Shown: positions 1 to 22,589, counted from the stretch's first letter. The stretch: DNA of 64,000 bases from an uncultured Chloroflexia bacterium (GCA_963703345.1 OY969814.1:544001-608000); one strand, 5' to 3'. Notes: generated by a model from the letters alone, not told the origin. Translations and numbers: made by a program.

Positions 1-1168
1 TTGTGGGCGTCAGCGTCCGTGTTGGCGTAGGCGTGGGCGTGTTCGTCGGCGTGGAAGTGGGGGTGGGCGTATCAGCCGGCAGCGACACATAGATCAGGTC
101 CACGACCGACCACGGCACCCATCCGCCGTTGTCTTCGTCGTAGCACCGGATCGCCAGCGGGGCCGTGCTAGTGACGTCGCACAGGTTGAATGGGTCAGTA
201 CCGTTAGAGGCCGCCGAATTGTTGTGGTCGGGCTTGCTTTGCCAGAGTGGCGGGAGGGCAGCATCACTATGAAGGCCGCTGGGCACAGGGTTTGGTGGTG
301 GCGCGGAGGCATTGGTGGTGTGAGTCCAGGGATCGGCGACGGTGATGGTCCCATGCCCAGCAGCACCCCCGGCAGTGTTGTAGCCTACTCCTGCGACCAC
401 GTGGGCGGTCTCGGGAGTGGGGGAAGTGGTTCTCTCCAGCCACAGCAGGACGTCCTTACCGCTGCTCAGTTGGGTCTGGTAGTCCAGGAAGGTGGGCGGG
501 CCGGCGACCTGGTCAACACCGGGCACGTGGCCGGGCGCGACCGCTCCCGGGCCGCAGGGGTTGAGAGTGTTCTGGGTGGGTGCAGCCCTGTTGACTTTCA
601 GCCCGAAGTGACCGGGCGCGCACTTGGCCGGGTCGATGATGTCGTGGACCGCCAGGCCGTTACCGTTGTTTACGTAGGTCTTGAGGCCGATGAGGTAGTC
701 CCACTCCTCTACGCCCTGGCCGTAGCAGTAGTTGGTCTCTAAGCCGTCCTTGCTGCCGTTCTGGTTGGTATCCGTGAACGTGCTCTCGGCGATCTTCCTC
801 AGTACCATGGGGTAACCTATGACCGGAGCCGGAAGGCCGTCAACTGCGTCGCGCGAATCGTACCAGCAGGCGCTTCCGGCGTTCTTGCTGTCGTCGTCGA
901 TATTCTTCCAGGTCTCATCTGGGCCCAGCAGCCCCTGCTGTCCGCTGGCATTATCCGCAAACCACCAGAAGGAGTCGGCGGCCGCTCCCACCCAGCACCA
1001 GGCGTCCGAGTGCTGGCCGAGGTCGGGCATGGAAACCTTCCAGAAGCTCACCGGCGGCGCATCCGCCCGCGCCGTGCTGCCGGCAGTATGCAGCAGGGCG
1101 AGTGTGAGGACCGGGGCTATCGCCGCCAGAGCTGCTGCACCAACTAAAACTGAGAATAGCTTCTTCAT
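1..1168 (-). CDS. Secreted papain/C39-like cysteine peptidase-domain protein with Pro/Thr linker (runs off the left edge)
   Basis: Not in the ORF track. Manual translation from the ATG at 1168 gives a signal peptide (MKKLFSVLVGAAALAA), motifs QHSDAWCW, HVVAGVGY and ADPW, then TPTPTSTPT repeats; the frame stays open to the edge. Confidence 0.7.
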   Translation of the reverse strand, partial: MKKLFSVLVGAAALAAIAPVLTLALLHTAGSTARADAPPVSFWKVSMPDLGQHSDAWCWVGAAADSFWWFADNASGQQGLLGPDETWKNIDDDSKNAGSACWYDSRDAVDGLPAPVIGYPMVLRKIAESTFTDTNQNGSKDGLETNYCYGQGVEEWDYLIGLKTYVNNGNGLAVHDIIDPAKCAPGHFGLKVNRAAPTQNTLNPCGPGAVAPGHVPGVDQVAGPPTFLDYQTQLSSGKDVLLWLERTTSPTPETAHVVAGVGYNTAGGAAGHGTITVADPWTHTTNASAPPPNPVPSGLHSDAALPPLWQSKPDHNNSAASNGTDPFNLCDVTSTAPLAIRCYDEDNGGWVPWSVVDLIYVSLPADTPTPTSTPTNTPTPTPTRTLTPT

Positions 1169-3930: not shown

Positions 3931-6081
3931 TTAGCGCGCCTTCCGCCAGCGCCTCCGCGCGTACCAGCCGCCCGCCCCGAGAACGATCACTGCAGCCCCG
4001 GCTCCCGTCAGAGCGGCGTAAGGCGGCGACGTTGAGCCGGCCGTCTGCGGAGGCGGCGCGTTCATGTCCGGGGCCTCCGCGATGCCGCCCACGGCAGGAT
4101 CACTCGCAGACGCGGACCGATCCACAACATTGACCTTGACGTAGTCATTGTCCCAGGCGCCTTGGCAATGGTCAGGCCAGGGCGGAATGCCGCAAGCATT
4201 CACCGTGGCAAAGTTCGTGATTACACCGGGCGTGCTCAAAGTTACGTCCACCGATTTCTCGCACGTGTTGCCCGCGGAGATCAATGAGCAGTCGCCGTCC
4301 AAGTTGGGGAGAGCGTCATCAACGACGTTCGCGTACATTGGTCGGTCACCGCTGTTGGTGACAACCCAACGGAAAGTGACCGAATCTCCAACGTGTAAGG
4401 TGATAGGCCCCTGCTGGCCGTTGGCGGTCTCGTCAATGGACGCCTTCGGGGCGGATCTTACGCTTGTGGGCGTGAAGGTGGGAGTGGGTGTCGGTGTGCA
4501 CATGCCAGGAGGACACGGCGTCGCGGTTGGGGTTGGAGTCCCCGTGTCGGTAGGGGTGGGAGTGGGAGTCGGCGCCAGGAGCGTGAAACTGAGATCTCCT
4601 CTGCTCCCGGCAAAGCCTCCTACCTGAAAGTGATAAGTGGTGCCGGCGATAGCATCGAACGTGATGAGAGACGTCAACCCGGGCCCCGAATCATCGTCGC
4701 AGGCCAGGTTGGTCAAGTCCCCCAAATCGCTTCCCGTGTAGACTGCCAGGGCCGAGTCGTAGTCGCTTCCCGCGGTATCGACCTGCAGCATCACGCTTTG
4801 AGACGGCGTGTAACTGTACCACACGGTCGAGCCGATGCTGGCGCAGGGCTGGGGCTCGCTAGTCTGCGATGAGGCGCACATAGTAGATGTGTTAGCCGAA
4901 AACGGTTCTGCCCCTATCCCAGCCGCGTTGGCGAAATAGTCGTTCCCGGGCGGAATACAGGCCTGGAAGTCCAACACGTTCACCGGGCTGACGCTGTCGG
5001 TCGTCGTGCCATCACCTAGTTGGCCGTATCCGTTGAAACCCCAGCACTGGGCGCTGCCGTCGCTGAGCAGGGCGCATGTATGGTTCCAGCCGGTGGCGAT
5101 GGCAACTGCGTTGCTCAGGCCCGAGACCGGCACCGGACTGCCACCGTAGCCCGCGCCCCAGCATTTGGCCGTGCCGTCACTAAGCAACGCGCAACTGTGC
5201 TCCCAGCCGATAACGACAGCGATCACGTTGCTCAGGCCCGAGACCGCCACCGGGCTACTCTGACTAACATTTGTCCCGTCTCCTAATTGGCCGTTATTGT
5301 TGAAGCCCCAGCACTTGACGGTCGCGTCAGCGAGGAGGACACAAGTGTGGCCGAAGCTCCGACCGGGTGCGATGCCGGTGGCGTTGTTTAGACCCGAGAC
5401 TGTGACGGGGGCAGACTGGCTAATCAGTGTGCCGTCCCCAAGCTGACCGAACGAGTTGAAACCCCAGCACCTGACAGTGCCGTCATTGAGCACGGCGCAA
5501 GTATGATATTCTCCGCCGCCAATCGCTACGGCATTGCTGAGATTCGAGACGGCCACCGGGTTGGAGCGATTCATCGTGGTGCCGTCGCCTAGCTGACCGT
5601 GCGAGTTCTCGCCCCAACAGCGCATCGAGCCGTCGCCGAAGAGGGCGCAAGTGTGGTTGCCCGCCGCATTGATGGCGATGACGTTGTTCAAGCCCGAGAC
5701 CGTGACGGGTGTGTGGTGGTCCGCGGTCGTACCGTCTCCGAGCTGGCCATCTCCGTTCCAGCCCCAGCACTTGGCGGTGCCGTCGTTGAGGAGGGCGCAG
5801 GTGTGGCTGGTACCGGCGGAGATCGCGACGGCGTCGGTCAAACCCGAGACCGTGACGGGTGTGTGGTGCTCTGCGGTCGTACCGTCCCCAAGCTGGCCGT
5901 ATCCGTTCCAGCCCCAGCACTTGGCGGTACCGTCGCTGAGCAGAGCGCAGGTATGCTGCCCTCCACCAGAGACAGCGCCGAGGAGGGTTGCAGAGCCAGG
6001 CTTGGGCCGGCCCAGCCCCAGGATTGCGAGCACCGCCAGAAAGGATAGGACTATCGGAATCAAGCGTTTTATGACGCTCAC
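3931..6081 (-). CDS. RCC1/BLIP-II repeat surface protein with PPC-like domain, Pro/Thr linker and C-terminal membrane anchor
   Basis: Seven HTCALL..G..CWG repeats (most followed by GQLGDGT), signal peptide, C-terminal TM followed by WYARRRW. Confidence 0.9.
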   Translation of the reverse strand: MSVIKRLIPIVLSFLAVLAILGLGRPKPGSATLLGAVSGGGQHTCALLSDGTAKCWGWNGYGQLGDGTTAEHHTPVTVSGLTDAVAISAGTSHTCALLNDGTAKCWGWNGDGQLGDGTTADHHTPVTVSGLNNVIAINAAGNHTCALFGDGSMRCWGENSHGQLGDGTTMNRSNPVAVSNLSNAVAIGGGEYHTCAVLNDGTVRCWGFNSFGQLGDGTLISQSAPVTVSGLNNATGIAPGRSFGHTCVLLADATVKCWGFNNNGQLGDGTNVSQSSPVAVSGLSNVIAVVIGWEHSCALLSDGTAKCWGAGYGGSPVPVSGLSNAVAIATGWNHTCALLSDGSAQCWGFNGYGQLGDGTTTDSVSPVNVLDFQACIPPGNDYFANAAGIGAEPFSANTSTMCASSQTSEPQPCASIGSTVWYSYTPSQSVMLQVDTAGSDYDSALAVYTGSDLGDLTNLACDDDSGPGLTSLITFDAIAGTTYHFQVGGFAGSRGDLSFTLLAPTPTPTPTDTGTPTPTATPCPPGMCTPTPTPTFTPTSVRSAPKASIDETANGQQGPITLHVGDSVTFRWVVTNSGDRPMYANVVDDALPNLDGDCSLISAGNTCEKSVDVTLSTPGVITNFATVNACGIPPWPDHCQGAWDNDYVKVNVVDRSASASDPAVGGIAEAPDMNAPPPQTAGSTSPPYAALTGAGAAVIVLGAGGWYARRRWRKAR

Positions 6082-18142: not shown

Positions 18143-21100
18143 CTACGGCCTAGCCAGCAGCGCTTCCGCCATCTCCACGTGCTTGGGCATGCCGATGCGG
18201 CGATACATGGCGATGGCCTCGGTGAGGAGCTCGCGGGCCTTCTCGCAGTCGCCGGGGGCGTCGCGGTCGATGAGCATGCGGGCGTACCAGCGCCGCACCT
18301 CCGGCTGCTGGATGACGTGGGGCAGCTCGTGGGCCTGGCGCAGGGCCGTCTGGTAGTGCTCCTCCGCCTTCTCCCAGTGTTCCCCGGCCGCCGCCGCCAT
18401 CCCCGCCACAGCATGAAGTAACGGAGAGTACCAAAGAACGACGGCTCCGGTATCGACGGCCTCCAGGACCAACGGGTAGAGCTTCGCGGCCTTCTCTCGT
18501 TCACCGAGGACGGTAAGCCCTTCGACCGCCGCGAAGAGCATCGCCCAGGCCCCTATCACGTTGGCCCGGCCGGGCCGCGGCAGCTTCTCCCGACTCTGCT
18601 CCAGCACCGCAAAGGCTGAATCTCTGTCCCCAACGTATGCCTCCCCCAGGAAGAGAGCCCCCCAGTCATAGCCGGCGAGGACCCCTGGCGGCTCCAGGTT
18701 GGCCGCCTCCTGGTATTGCGCGAGCGCCTGCCCCCACTCTCCCCTCCAGAAATGTACGTCGCCAAGGTAGGTATAGGCGTTGGATATCGCGTTGCTGCCG
18801 GTTCTGCGGCAGAGCTCCAGGTCCGCCTTCGCGTACTCCTCGAACCTTTTGATGTCGCCCGTGACCATGAACTGTCCGTTGACTATACCGCGCCTGACCG
18901 ATAGGAGGGCGCCCAGATAGCCCAGACGCGTGGCCAGCGGCTCCACCTCGCGGCCGATCTCGGCGGCTTCGGTGAGGCGGCCGAGATACAACAGCGCGTA
19001 CTGGGTGTTCCAAGAAATATCAGTCAAGCTGCCGAGGTCTCCGGTTTGCCGCAGGATATCCGCCGCCCGCAGGCCGGCGTTGACCGCGTCTAGCGGCTGC
19101 AAGTGCCAGCCGTGGTGGACGGTCTTGTACCCTAGGACCTGCCCCAGTAGGCGCTGATCGCCCAGCGTCTCAGCCATGGTCAGGGCCTCGTCAAGCAGCG
19201 AGGCGCCCGCGCTGTAATCGCCGGAGAGGCTGAGGTGCGACCCAGTGTGGGCGAGAAGGCGGCAGCGGTCGGCGCTTACCCGCTCGCCCAAGGCGGCCAG
19301 GCCACGCCGCCCGATCTCCAGAGATTCGGCCAGCTTGCCGCTGTAGGCCAATTGCAGGGCCAATGCGAAGGAGACGTGGCCCGCCGCCTCGGCGTTTCCC
19401 AACTCGTCGTAGGCGGCCAGCGCCTCGCGCCAATCGGCCATCGCCTCCTCCCAGCGGCCCAGGCTGCGCAGGGCCAGCCCCCGTTTGTAGAGCAGGTCGG
19501 CCCTCCCTCTCTGGTCATCGGCCGGCTGCAAGGAGAGAGCGTCGTCGTAGTGGCGCAGGGCATCCTCGAAGGCCGCTGCCTCCATGGCTCTCTTTCCCGC
19601 CACCGTCAGGTAGCGCGCCGTCTTCTCGGGGTCGGCGGCGGCCCCCGCCTGGTAGAAATGGTGGGCCAGGTCGGTGGCATGCTCCTCCAGGGTGCGGGCG
19701 TAGAGCCGCTCCATCGCCTCGGCTACCCGCAGGTGCCGCCGCTGCCGCCGGGGCAGTGAGAGGCTGCTGACCAGCGTCTGGCGGATAAGCTCGTGGGCGA
19801 AGCTGAAGCGGGCCTCAGGGCCGTCGGCGGTGGAGGTGATGAGGTGGGCCCGCTCCGCCTCGTCGATGGCGTCCAGAAGGGCGTCGGTGCCCACATCGCC
19901 CAGCGCATCCAGCAGCTCGAAGCTGAAGCTGCGGCCGATGACGGCGGCGACGGTCAGGACCCGCCGGCAGTCCTCGCAGACGCGCTCCAGCCGCCGCCCG
20001 ATGACCAGGCGGACCCCCTCCGGCACGTTCAGCTCGCTCACGCGGAGACCAGGGTGCCAGCGGCCTTGAGCGTCGAACAGCTTTCCCTCCTCTGCCAGAT
20101 GCTGGAACACCTCCTCGACGAAGAAGGGGTTGCCCTCCGTCTCACCATAGACGGCCTGCACCAGCGAGGCCGGCGGCTCCTGGCCGCTGAGGGCCTCCAG
20201 CATCGCCGCCACGCCCGCCTCAGGCAGCCGCCGCAGGGCGATGCGGTGGGCCAGGCGCTGGCGGAGGAGCTCCTCCAGGGCCCTGGCCAAGGGGTGGCCC
20301 ACGTCCAGCTCCACGTCTCGATAGGTGCCCAGGATCATCAGGGGCATCTGGCTAACCTGCTGGGCGATGTGCTGCATCAGCAGCAGGGTCGAGTCGTCGG
20401 CCCAGTGCAGATCGTCCAGCACCAAGAGTATGGGCTGCACGCGGGCCGCCCGCTCCAGGAACTCCTGAAAGCTGTTGAACAGATAGCGCCGCTCCTGCTC
20501 AGGCGGCAGCTCCAGAGGCGGTGGGATGTCGGGGAAGAGGCGGCGCAGCTCCGGCATCAACTTGGCTACCTCTGGCGCCGCATCGCCCAGGGCCTCCCGA
20601 AAAGCCTCTCCCGGAACGATGCGAGCCGTACCCTCCAGCGTCTCCACGAAGGGAATGTAGGGCGGTGCCCCCTCCATCTCGTAGCAGTGTCCGGTCAGGG
20701 CCAGCACCCCACGCTGGCGGGCCTCCAGCAGCAGTTCCTCAGCGAGACGTGTCTTGCCCACGCCGGGCTCGCCGCCGATCAAGACCAGGGCGCCCCGACC
20801 GCGGGTCACCTGGTCGAGGCAGCGCCGGAGCTCCGCCCGTTCCGCCTCCCGGCCTACGAAGGGTGTCCGCTCGGGAAGGCGTAGCCCTGCCGGTCCGATG
20901 GCTTCCTCCTCCCACGACACCCTATGAAGCCGCATAGGCCTGGGGAAGCCCTTGAGCTCCACCTCTCCACGGTCCTCCAGTTCCACCTTCGTCGCCTCGC
21001 CCAGGACACCTTTGGCGGTCTCCGAGATCAGAATCTCGCCGGCATCGGCGTGGTCGGCGATGCGGGCAGCCGCGTTCACCGTCGCCCCGAACAGGTCCGT

Positions 21101-21430
21101 CTCCTCCCGAATGACCTCGCCGGTGTTGAGCCCAATGCGCACACGTACGGCCCGCTCAGGGTCCTGCCGGTTGCGTCCTGCTATCGCCCTCTGGATATCG
21201 ACCGCGCAGGCGACAGCCCTTCGCGCGGAGGTGAAGGCGACCATTAGGCCATCGCCGGTGTGCTTGACCTCTTGCCCGCGATGCCGGGTGACCTGCTGGC
21301 GGACCAGCTCATCACAGGCGCGCAGCACCTCACGGGCGGCGTCGTCACCGAGCCGTGTCGCGAGGTCAGTGGAGCCTTCGCAATCCGTGAAGAGGACTGT
21401 GACTGTGCCTTCAGGGATCTCGTGTGCCAT
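18143..21430 (-). CDS. Class III cyclase-AAA (STAND) ATPase-TPR protein
   Basis: LFTDCEGST, KHTGDG, VNAAARI; GEPGVGKT, LDDLHWAD, TEGNPFF; helical repeats. Confidence 0.9.
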   Translation of the reverse strand: MAHEIPEGTVTVLFTDCEGSTDLATRLGDDAAREVLRACDELVRQQVTRHRGQEVKHTGDGLMVAFTSARRAVACAVDIQRAIAGRNRQDPERAVRVRIGLNTGEVIREETDLFGATVNAAARIADHADAGEILISETAKGVLGEATKVELEDRGEVELKGFPRPMRLHRVSWEEEAIGPAGLRLPERTPFVGREAERAELRRCLDQVTRGRGALVLIGGEPGVGKTRLAEELLLEARQRGVLALTGHCYEMEGAPPYIPFVETLEGTARIVPGEAFREALGDAAPEVAKLMPELRRLFPDIPPPLELPPEQERRYLFNSFQEFLERAARVQPILLVLDDLHWADDSTLLLMQHIAQQVSQMPLMILGTYRDVELDVGHPLARALEELLRQRLAHRIALRRLPEAGVAAMLEALSGQEPPASLVQAVYGETEGNPFFVEEVFQHLAEEGKLFDAQGRWHPGLRVSELNVPEGVRLVIGRRLERVCEDCRRVLTVAAVIGRSFSFELLDALGDVGTDALLDAIDEAERAHLITSTADGPEARFSFAHELIRQTLVSSLSLPRRQRRHLRVAEAMERLYARTLEEHATDLAHHFYQAGAAADPEKTARYLTVAGKRAMEAAAFEDALRHYDDALSLQPADDQRGRADLLYKRGLALRSLGRWEEAMADWREALAAYDELGNAEAAGHVSFALALQLAYSGKLAESLEIGRRGLAALGERVSADRCRLLAHTGSHLSLSGDYSAGASLLDEALTMAETLGDQRLLGQVLGYKTVHHGWHLQPLDAVNAGLRAADILRQTGDLGSLTDISWNTQYALLYLGRLTEAAEIGREVEPLATRLGYLGALLSVRRGIVNGQFMVTGDIKRFEEYAKADLELCRRTGSNAISNAYTYLGDVHFWRGEWGQALAQYQEAANLEPPGVLAGYDWGALFLGEAYVGDRDSAFAVLEQSREKLPRPGRANVIGAWAMLFAAVEGLTVLGEREKAAKLYPLVLEAVDTGAVVLWYSPLLHAVAGMAAAAGEHWEKAEEHYQTALRQAHELPHVIQQPEVRRWYARMLIDRDAPGDCEKARELLTEAIAMYRRIGMPKHVEMAEALLARP

Positions 21431-21569
21431 CGTAGCCACCCGCAGCTCTGGATGACGCAATGTTACTGCGTTTGCTAACGATGTCAAGAGGATAGGTTCC
21501 TCTTCGCAGCGGAAGAGGATGTGACGATGCACCCTTAGTGTCACCGATGCGAGAGGGCAGCGCCCTCTC

Positions 21570-22589
21570 TTGACACCCACCGGGCCACAACCGGCGAATG
21601 CGGCGTTCCGAGGCGCGAACGGGAGGATCACGTTTCAGAGTGACCGCGATGGTGCGACGTACGAGATTCATAAGATGAACACTGATGGCAGTGGCCAAAC
21701 GCGGCTGACGAACAATACGGCAAACGATACTTCACCTTCTTGGTCGCCGGATGGCTTGCAGATCGTGTTCGATAGCACCCGGGACGGTGCCACTTACGAG
21801 ATCTACAAGATGAACTCCGACGGTACGGCACAGACACGTCTCACCAACAACGCCGCCAACGATCTGTAGCCAGCCTGGTCGCCGGACGGCTTGAAGATCG
21901 CGTTCGCCAGCGGGGATGGTGTCACGTACGATATCTACAAGATGAACGCCGACGGCAGCGGCCGGACGCGGCTGACCAACGATAGTGCTATCAACACAGC
22001 ACCGGACTGGTCGCCCGATGGCTTGAAGATCGCGTTCGGCAGCGACCGGCAGGGGAACCGCGACATCTATGTGATGAATGCTGACGGCAGCGGCGAGACG
22101 CGGCTGACCAACGATAGTGCTATCAACACAGCACCGGACTGGTCGCCCGATGGCTTGAAGATCGCGTTCGGCAGCGACCGGCAGGGGAACCGCGACATCT
22201 ATGTGATGAATGCTGACGGCAGCGGCGAGACGCGGCTGACCAACAGCGGCGCCGTCAATGCCAATCCTGCCTGGTCTCCCGACGGACATCGTATCGCCTT
22301 CTCCTCCAGCAACCAGGTCTACGTTATGAATGCTGATGGTACCGGCCAGACACGGCTGACCAACGACTCAGCAGACGATCTGTCCCCCGATTGGCAGCCG
22401 CTGTCGGTTGTGGGTGGCGTCGCGGAGCCTCCCGACGTAGCCAGCACCTCCGTTGAACAGGCTGGAGCGCCTGAGGGACGTTCTGGCCGGTCGGCTGGCG
22501 AATACGCGGCTCTGGCTGGCGGCGCGACCGGGCTGGTCATGGCGGCGGGCATCAGCGTTTGGCACGTCAGGAAGCGCTCAAGCCGATAA
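21570..22589 (+). pseudogene. TolB-like PD40-repeat surface protein with an in-frame TAG and no clear signal peptide
   Basis: PxWSPDG repeats continue in frame across the TAG at 21867-21869; C-terminal TM anchor. Confidence 0.8.
21965..22244 (+). repeat. Exact 132-bp tandem duplication (one PD40 unit)
   Basis: Identical units start at 21965 and 22097; a partial third starts at 22229. Confidence 0.9.

Follow-up and report, generated by a model that had tools for sequence, protein, structure and literature searches.

The window analyzed here is a stretch of 64,000 nucleotides (C1:544001-608000) of G000, the genome of an uncultured Chloroflexia bacterium that comprises 2.28 Mb in one contig and is 96% complete. 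It encodes an RCC1 protein with a tripartite C-terminal signal, the VGG tail, in which a Gly-Gly motif is followed by a membrane helix and a basic end. Judging from its distribution and gene order, the tail very probably forms a functional pair with a membrane protein that is encoded elsewhere in the genome and is predicted to be a clan CD protease. The leading reading, to which about even confidence is given, is that this co-inherited protein would cut the tail and move the protein to an acceptor in the cell envelope. The system would work like sortase or glycosylphosphatidylinositol (GPI) anchoring, yet falls outside every named family.

The tail of the RCC1 protein runs from VGGIAEAPD through MNAPPPQTAGSTSPP and the helix YAALTGAGAAVIVLGAGGWY to ARRRWRKAR-stop. 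The features of the window that concern the tail are as follows (aa, amino acids).

3931..6081, minus strand: RCC1 substrate gene, 716 aa, with a predicted signal peptide, RCC1 beta-propeller, PPC/DUF11-like segments, Pro/Thr linker and VGG tail
4066..4092, minus strand: signature motif VGGIAEAPD of the RCC1 protein, read in the sequence
4021..4065, minus strand: hydrophilic Ser/Gly/Pro spacer of the RCC1 tail, variable among tails in length and sequence
3961..4020, minus strand: predicted transmembrane helix YAALTGAGAAVIVLGAGGWY, from the sequence and hydropathy windows
3931..3960, minus strand: basic C-terminal cluster ARRRWRKAR and stop, read in the sequence
1..1168, minus strand: third substrate gene, with its tail VGGVAEAPD...WYARRRWLA outside the window at G000:C1:543825-543986
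21570..22589, plus strand: broken substrate gene of the PD40 (TolB-like propeller) type, with an in-frame TAG at 21867-21869, no in-frame signal peptide and an intact tail
22410..22436, plus strand: second motif copy, VGGVAEPPD; the PD40 frame ends WHVRKRSSR-stop at 22589

A first-pass annotation of the window had claimed a common tail on the RCC1 and PD40 frames, and in both it was read in the sequence as claimed. The annotation had also raised the question of whether the gene at 1..1168 ends in the same way; it does, 15-175 bases past the left window edge, and the next gene beyond is VGG-tailed as well. The element YAAL, which had been included in the signal, was dropped, being exact in just 6 of 21 aligned tails.

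Searches with a pattern and with a hidden Markov model of the tail identified complete VGG tails in 21 genes of G000, all at the very C-terminus, so paralogous tails exist. The consensus is [VI]GG-[IV]-A-E-x-P-D, a spacer of 17-29 residues (measured between GG and the best hydrophobic window), a single membrane helix and W-Y-x-R-R-R. The strict pattern was found in 20 of the 31,683 six-frame open reading frames of G000, and in none in each of five shuffles of their last 80 residues. The ectodomains of the 21 genes fall into 11 unrelated groups and include RCC1, NHL/YVTN, Kelch and PD40 propellers, an M28 peptidase, an esterase, VWA, cohesin and TSP3 proteins, and unknowns. A hydropathy heuristic showed a basic-then-hydrophobic N-terminus in 20 of the 21 proteins, the exception being the broken PD40 gene. 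A profile of 52 tails matched 2,289 protein clusters among 1.84 billion at E up to 0.001. Among the best 150 database tails, 147 had [VI]GG 35-75 residues from the end; in these V-G-G is essentially invariant, with P at +7 in 97% and D at +8 in 78%, and the distance from V to W-[YF]-x-R-R is 35-53 residues in the 137 tails having both. PxTG was absent within 25 residues of the motif start from all 147 database tails and all 21 tails of G000, and no Cys occurred in the 25 residues from the motif in the 147. Pair identity at synonymous sites of the motif was 0.33-0.60, compared with 0.38-0.49 expected from codon usage, while G-G is invariant; the synonymous sites therefore vary about as the codon usage of the genome predicts, which points to selection on the protein. 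Sequence 3' of the stop is unrelated among tail genes, and spacer length varies in frame. One tail remnant, consisting of the helix end and WYARRRW with neither motif nor gene, was seen at G000:C1:1458166-1458288(-).

The claim that such a signal has no named family was borne out: no Pfam or NCBIfam model describes the VGG motif. Comparison with the defined CTERM models gave only weak scores on the helix and basic end, with the motif unmatched. The window tail scored 14.9 bits against TIGR01167 (cut-off 15.9) and 18.9 against GVDTG_CTERM (cut-off 29), in both cases on the helix part, and 11 of the 21 isolated tails matched TIGR01167 at E up to 1 (best E 8.9e-4; bits refer to member 1 only). 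Some tails probably cross the low TIGR01167 cut-off through the helix and basic end, without the motif. No description of the VGG motif or of the enzyme was found in the literature searched, which covered few subscription journals.

The first-pass annotation had placed the processing enzyme outside the window, and both copies of the candidate gene are indeed located elsewhere in G000.

G000:C1:938366-939244, plus strand: candidate enzyme copy L368, 292 aa, starting 19 bases after the stop of a tail gene
G000:C1:1832491-1833396, plus strand: candidate enzyme copy L369, 301 aa

Two routes led to this protein, a family recurring beside tail genes in three genomes and absence from G006, a tail-less genome of the same genus. 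When the neighbourhoods of 45 tail loci were clustered, no dominant partner was apparent at first; the enzyme family was the three-genome cluster. For the second route, all but 881 bases of G006 were searched for G000 genes without a close match; there were 909 under a loose rule that includes stretch-boundary artefacts, and 190 with a hydrophobic segment.

The pairing was evaluated in 41 relatives of the same order. Tail and enzyme were both present in 29 and both absent from 10; two had the tail only and none the enzyme only. The tail sequence was read in 17 of the 31 tail-positive relatives, the other 14 being strong matches covering the motif; G006 was counted as negative (its match is a PPNTG tail) and G027 as positive (one tail). 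The Fisher value of 6e-8 is overstated because the ten negatives represent about four independent events. In a sample of 201 genomes of the class, all 18 enzyme-positive genomes bear tails: 11 long, 5 of a short subtype, VGGxxxP[VTP][DN], and 2 QGG or AGG variants. Seven genomes had been missed by the first tail model, and in all of them a variant tail gene lies directly upstream of the enzyme. The 183 enzyme-negative genomes yielded tails in one (G024) and 13 other weak matches that lacked the motif when read. The short subtype was found in 5 of the 201 genomes, all enzyme-positive and the same five that seeded its model, and in none of the 183.

Gene order is consistent with these counts. 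At least 16 of the 29 relatives have the enzyme gene immediately after a tail gene, and in G027, G209 and G219 the single tail match is the gene adjoining the enzyme. In 79 metagenome loci, some of them near-copies, a tail gene lies directly upstream of the enzyme in 47, while 17 were too short. G006 has no canonical tail, and the second enzyme copy is gone from a collinear block in a single contig, where 195 bases separate its neighbours. A G006 protein 56-62% identical to VGG-tailed propellers has the same helix and a WYARRRWLR end, but carries PPNTG. In G000, too, paralogous ectodomains carry either a VGG or a PxTG-type motif (40% over 331 aa; 70% over 307 aa).

A degenerate DNA pattern for the tail gave 92 matches, comprising 56 true tails, 33 chance matches and 3 unread. 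Records titled Dehalococcoidia, Chloroflexota or Chloroflexia hold 54 of the true tails; the other two are on a 12-kb Acidimicrobiales contig, from a genome without the enzyme, and a 2.7-kb Bathyarchaeia contig, both of which may be misbinned. The record titles suggest that G000 itself is a Dehalococcoidia genome. In a phylum sample of 301 genomes, with 21 candidates scored per genome, only single weak tail matches without VGG were obtained. Strong enzyme matches occurred there in five genomes of the class and one outside it, and there were eight distant homologues in another family. The latter (family f77: G245, G256, G266, G282, G290, G298, G306 and G314), in another class of the phylum, are frames of 300-700 aa with best E values of 1e-10 to 1e-16. 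G479 has a split enzyme match in an 864-aa frame.

The pair is also found in archaea. Low-GC metagenome contigs carry a short-subtype tail and the enzyme in the same arrangement, and the enzymes on them have their nearest matches in proteins named Bathyarchaeota and Nitrososphaeria. The long and short subtypes align over the motif (hhalign 88%, 16 columns). In the class of G501 (Bathyarchaeia), the enzyme is present in 36 of 101 genomes sampled and the short tail in 23, the tail counts being profile matches to a model made from 12 sequences. In an unrooted enzyme tree obtained by a quick method, seven short-tail metagenome enzymes share one branch with archaeal-named proteins (support 93); enzymes of bacterial short-tail genomes are not in the tree, from which neither donor nor order can be read. 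The lineage-specific sorting system envisaged in the first-pass annotation is therefore upheld insofar as the tripartite signal is lineage-restricted, but it extends beyond one lineage: other Dehalococcoidia families and archaea have a tail variant together with the same enzyme.

The candidate enzyme has a basic N-terminus and a single helix, together with a domain of 235 residues. Its annotation is that of a hypothetical protein, and it belongs to a family of more than 1,700 proteins. R-x-H is present in 240 of 240 homologues and G-C in 238 of 240, and the His and Cys are invariant in both enzyme alignments. No Pfam or NCBIfam family matched over its cut-off, the CHAT Pfam model reaching 5 of 39 members (best E 0.022) and C25 reaching 2 of 39 (best E 0.058), and there was no PDB match by sequence. 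An AlphaFold model was obtained with a pLDDT (predicted local distance difference test) of 85.6, and its top Foldseek matches were CHAT proteases (E 1.9e-5). The VIA Z values were 15.4 for CHAT (root-mean-square deviation, rmsd, 2.9; 177 residues aligned), 13.6 for separase, 12.8 for RgpB, 10.8 for asparaginyl ligase and 9.7 for PIGK; the range from 15.4 to 9 spans CHAT, separase, gingipain, caspases and legumain. An Atlas look-up returned Bathyarchaeota and Chloroflexota clusters first, followed by C25 and CHAT clusters. In the model, H122 follows the strand 116-120 and C214 the strand 208-211, the order of clan CD. The enzyme is thus predicted to have the clan CD (caspase/CHAT/gingipain) fold, and the candidate is not a member of the sortase, exosortase or rhomboid families that the first-pass annotation had suggested. 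A single-protein query found no relative in viral contigs, and no fused longer forms were found, which is weak evidence. No family with a Gly-Gly rule appears among the clan CD families and P1 rules in the accessible part of PMC12445089.

Known C-terminal sorting signals of the helix type are processed by sortases, exo/archaeosortases, rhomboids or CPBP proteases. Neither the exosortase family (PF09721) nor rhomboid (PF01694) was found in G000, where a single CPBP protease and five sortases are present. About 16 PxTG-type substrates belong to the sortases, some of them adjoining the sortase cluster. Sortases occur, with subclasses pooled, in 41 of 41 relatives, including all 10 that are tail-less (five in G006), and the distribution of the tail does not follow theirs. 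The PEP-CTERM/PGF-CTERM type was rejected, as there is no PEP, PGF or PEF motif abutting the helix and PF09721 was not found in G000. GlyGly-CTERM with rhombosortase was rejected as well, GG being 17-29 residues from the hydrophobic window and PF01694 not found in G000. For MYXO-CTERM with the CPBP myxosortase, the motif lacks Cys in 147 of 147 tails, and the CPBP gene of G000 has a 75%-identical match in the tail-less G006. Signals for intramembrane enzymes are described as having no spacer, and LPXTG signals as having one, in the available part of Haft (10.1101/2023.06.07.544157). The spacer of 17-29 residues therefore points to a membrane-tethered enzyme with its catalytic domain outside.

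Several observations were made on the sortase system itself. Four tandem sortase genes at G000:C1:684116-692426 are preceded by three PxTG-type substrates, one of which (687480-689135) ends PPRTGDGGYLP without a helix. A tandem array at G006:C3:276000-287000 encodes eight or more small secreted proteins whose PxTG-type sortase tails are similar. A VGG-like motif stands upstream of a sortase motif (LPDTG, MPSSG) in L050 (G020:C10) and L240 (G006:C3:178422-181601); these tails are possible intermediates between the VGG and sortase systems.

A mechanism in five steps can be proposed. The protein would be exported by its N-terminal signal peptide (predicted in 20 of 21), after which, from the topology, the helix and arginine cluster would hold it in the membrane with the motif outside. 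The N-terminally anchored enzyme, with its His122/Cys214 domain on the outer side, would recognize VGG across the spacer, as the pairing and co-loss suggest. Cleavage at or beside Gly-Gly through a Cys thioester is quite probable given the predicted fold and the invariant dyad; it is placed near GG because these are the only residues invariant in both tail subtypes. Once cleaved, the intermediate would somewhat more probably be resolved by the amine of a lipid or glycan than by water, by analogy with PorU and GPI transamidase. Since archaea have the same enzyme and a variant of the tail, peptidoglycan is probably not the acceptor. G000 has Mur ligases, and related Dehalococcoidia are stated to make peptidoglycan in the part of PMC10284905 available. 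The full proposal, a one-gene transamidase of caspase fold that in Chloroflexota and Bathyarchaeia would replace a VGG-helix-arginine tail by a lipid or glycan anchor and would not need peptidoglycan, is tentative.

A close precedent is PorU (PG0026, C25, clan CD), which serves type IX secretion (the T9SS) as its sortase-like enzyme; as far as the accessible part of PMC4560394 goes, it too is a His/Cys enzyme of clan CD, for which cleavage of a C-terminal signal and attachment of the protein to an amine of the envelope have been proposed. The enzyme model aligns with the gingipain RgpB at Z 12.8 (rmsd 3.1, 177 aligned). In contrast to PorU, the VGG enzyme is a single-pass membrane protein of 270-300 aa in monoderms and archaea that stays below the C25 cut-off, and its signal is a short motif with helix and basic tail, not the C-terminal domain (CTD) of the T9SS, in which it has no role. 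The T9SS CTD is a folded domain without a helix. GPI transamidase (PIGK/Gpi8, family C13, clan CD) likewise acts on small residues followed by a hydrophilic spacer and a hydrophobic C-terminal tail, and its enzyme is membrane-tethered with a legumain/caspase fold (PMC9098846, in the part available). However, the VGG system has one gene, a fixed motif and a basic cytoplasmic end, whereas GPI transamidase has five subunits and no consensus motif, and the VGG enzyme fold is closer to CHAT and separase than to PIGK (Z 9.7). GPI transamidase may at most be a functional analogue, with no sign of special ancestry. The LPXTG/sortase (C60) system shares the order of motif, spacer, helix and basic cluster, about 20 substrates per genome and the enzyme topology, and the motifs exchange on homologues; the VGG signal differs in having no T-G bond, an enzyme of unrelated fold, a presence in archaea and coexistence with a full sortase system in one genome. 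GlyGly-CTERM, PEP-CTERM and MYXO-CTERM are also tripartite signals on many unrelated exported proteins with enzymes found by co-occurrence, and GlyGly-CTERM shares the Gly-Gly motif. In those signals the motif lies directly against the helix, and the processing enzymes are intramembrane proteases, whereas the VGG tail has a 17-29 residue spacer and no Cys in its motif (10.1101/2023.06.07.544157, available part).

Several results weigh against a strict pairing or against transfer to an acceptor. The archaeal counts (17 genomes with both, 6 with the tail only, 19 with the enzyme only, 59 with neither; Fisher 3e-5) describe an association that is real but loose and are the main result against one-to-one pairing. 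One of the tail-only archaeal genomes has eight tail matches, and a relaxed search of the 19 enzyme-only genomes found no tail directly upstream of the enzyme. In the order of G000, the tail-bearing G019 (240 contigs) and G024 (120 contigs) have no enzyme in their assemblies, and the ten tail-less relatives reduce to the few independent events mentioned above. Of the 79 metagenome loci, 15 had room upstream of the enzyme and no tail gene. Moreover, the closest folds, CHAT and separase, are plain proteases rather than ligases, the enzyme family has H-S or H-A rather than the usual H-G, and no acceptor partner gene recurs beside the enzyme in the neighbourhoods examined.

The main rival is that the same enzyme cuts VGG with water and acts as a dedicated sheddase, so that proteins tethered to the membrane for a time are let go into the wall space or the medium. 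This is possible but rather doubtful. It agrees with the hydrolytic nature of the nearest clan CD structures (CHAT Z 15.4, separase 13.6), with the lack of an acceptor-synthesis gene traveling with the enzyme, and with the several substrates that are hydrolases themselves (M28 peptidase, esterase). However, VGG and sortase PxTG motifs interchange on homologous proteins, in keeping with a common role in anchoring, a substrate with two cohesin domains is of a scaffold type expected to stay attached, and tripartite signals end in a new C-terminal attachment where studied, according to the accessible part of Haft (10.1101/2023.06.07.544157).

The possibility was also considered that the tail stays uncut and serves as a membrane anchor, with VGG as the site that binds the paired protein; the latter would then act as a chaperone, as a protease of quality control or in assembly. 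For anchoring, the helix and basic cluster would suffice, and the enzyme-only archaeal genomes suggest other roles for the enzyme. Nevertheless, its invariant His and Cys place catalysis under selection, and the small residues G-G are the sole invariant part of the motif across both subtypes, making an uncut anchor unlikely. It is more improbable still that the tail is a deviant sortase signal, with [LPA]PD[VA] in place of LPxTG, handled by one of the five sortases. The spacer architecture is that of LPXTG, [LPA]-P is common to both, every tail-positive genome tested has sortases, and there are weak scores against TIGR01167 and GVDTG_CTERM. On the other side, 147 of 147 tails lack PxTG in the motif region, the tail-less relatives have sortases too, G000 and G006 each have a separate PxTG set, in archaea the same new enzyme accompanies the short subtype, and the co-loss of tail and enzyme in G006 weakens the idea further. 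A recently copied DNA cassette without a selected protein function, as the near-identity of some paralogue tails and the remnant without motif at C1:1458166-1458288 might suggest, is scarcely credible, since the codon test refutes it with free synonymous positions, spacer length varies in frame before unrelated post-stop sequence, and the motif persists across orders and domains.

If cleavage and transfer by the clan CD candidate are correct, an enzyme family of a different fold would join the list of tail-processing enzymes as a new class, the fifth in prokaryotes, and would be the simplest prokaryotic counterpart of eukaryotic GPI anchoring. More than 1,700 hypothetical proteins would gain a function and over 2,000 protein clusters an address label, and it would be seen how archaea and Dehalococcoidia without peptidoglycan display surface proteins. 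The hosts are uncultured microbes of peat, soil and sediment. The enzyme is small, with one soluble domain and a short recognition motif, so that the claim is open to direct testing in vitro; a ligase recognizing such a new motif would be orthogonal to sortase A in labelling proteins.

Some further tailed genes deserve mention. The protein with two cohesin domains (1,140 aa; G000:C1:1905045-1908743(-), locus L010) has a VGG tail, and over part of its length it shares 70% identity with a protein whose end is of the LPGSG type. The genes at G000:C1:1047020-1052188(+) and 1807341-1808069(+) end in PVGGFTGSTGC..., a helix and RRR, each directly upstream of a VGG-tail TSP3 gene. The VGG start and Cys motif of these ends presumably resemble MYXO/JDVT-CTERM signals, and the proteins are possibly substrates of the single CPBP protease, or hybrids.

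The PD40 gene, which had been offered as a second surface protein with the tail, does carry the tail, but it is broken by the TAG and lacks an in-frame signal peptide. The breakage was judged against an intact relative (61% identical). The TAG is also present in one low-depth public contig that may be from the source sample and so is not independent. The 5' end of this pseudogene abuts a divergent open reading frame of 1,162 aa at 18143-21631(-), which we take to be of the guanylate-cyclase/AAA type.
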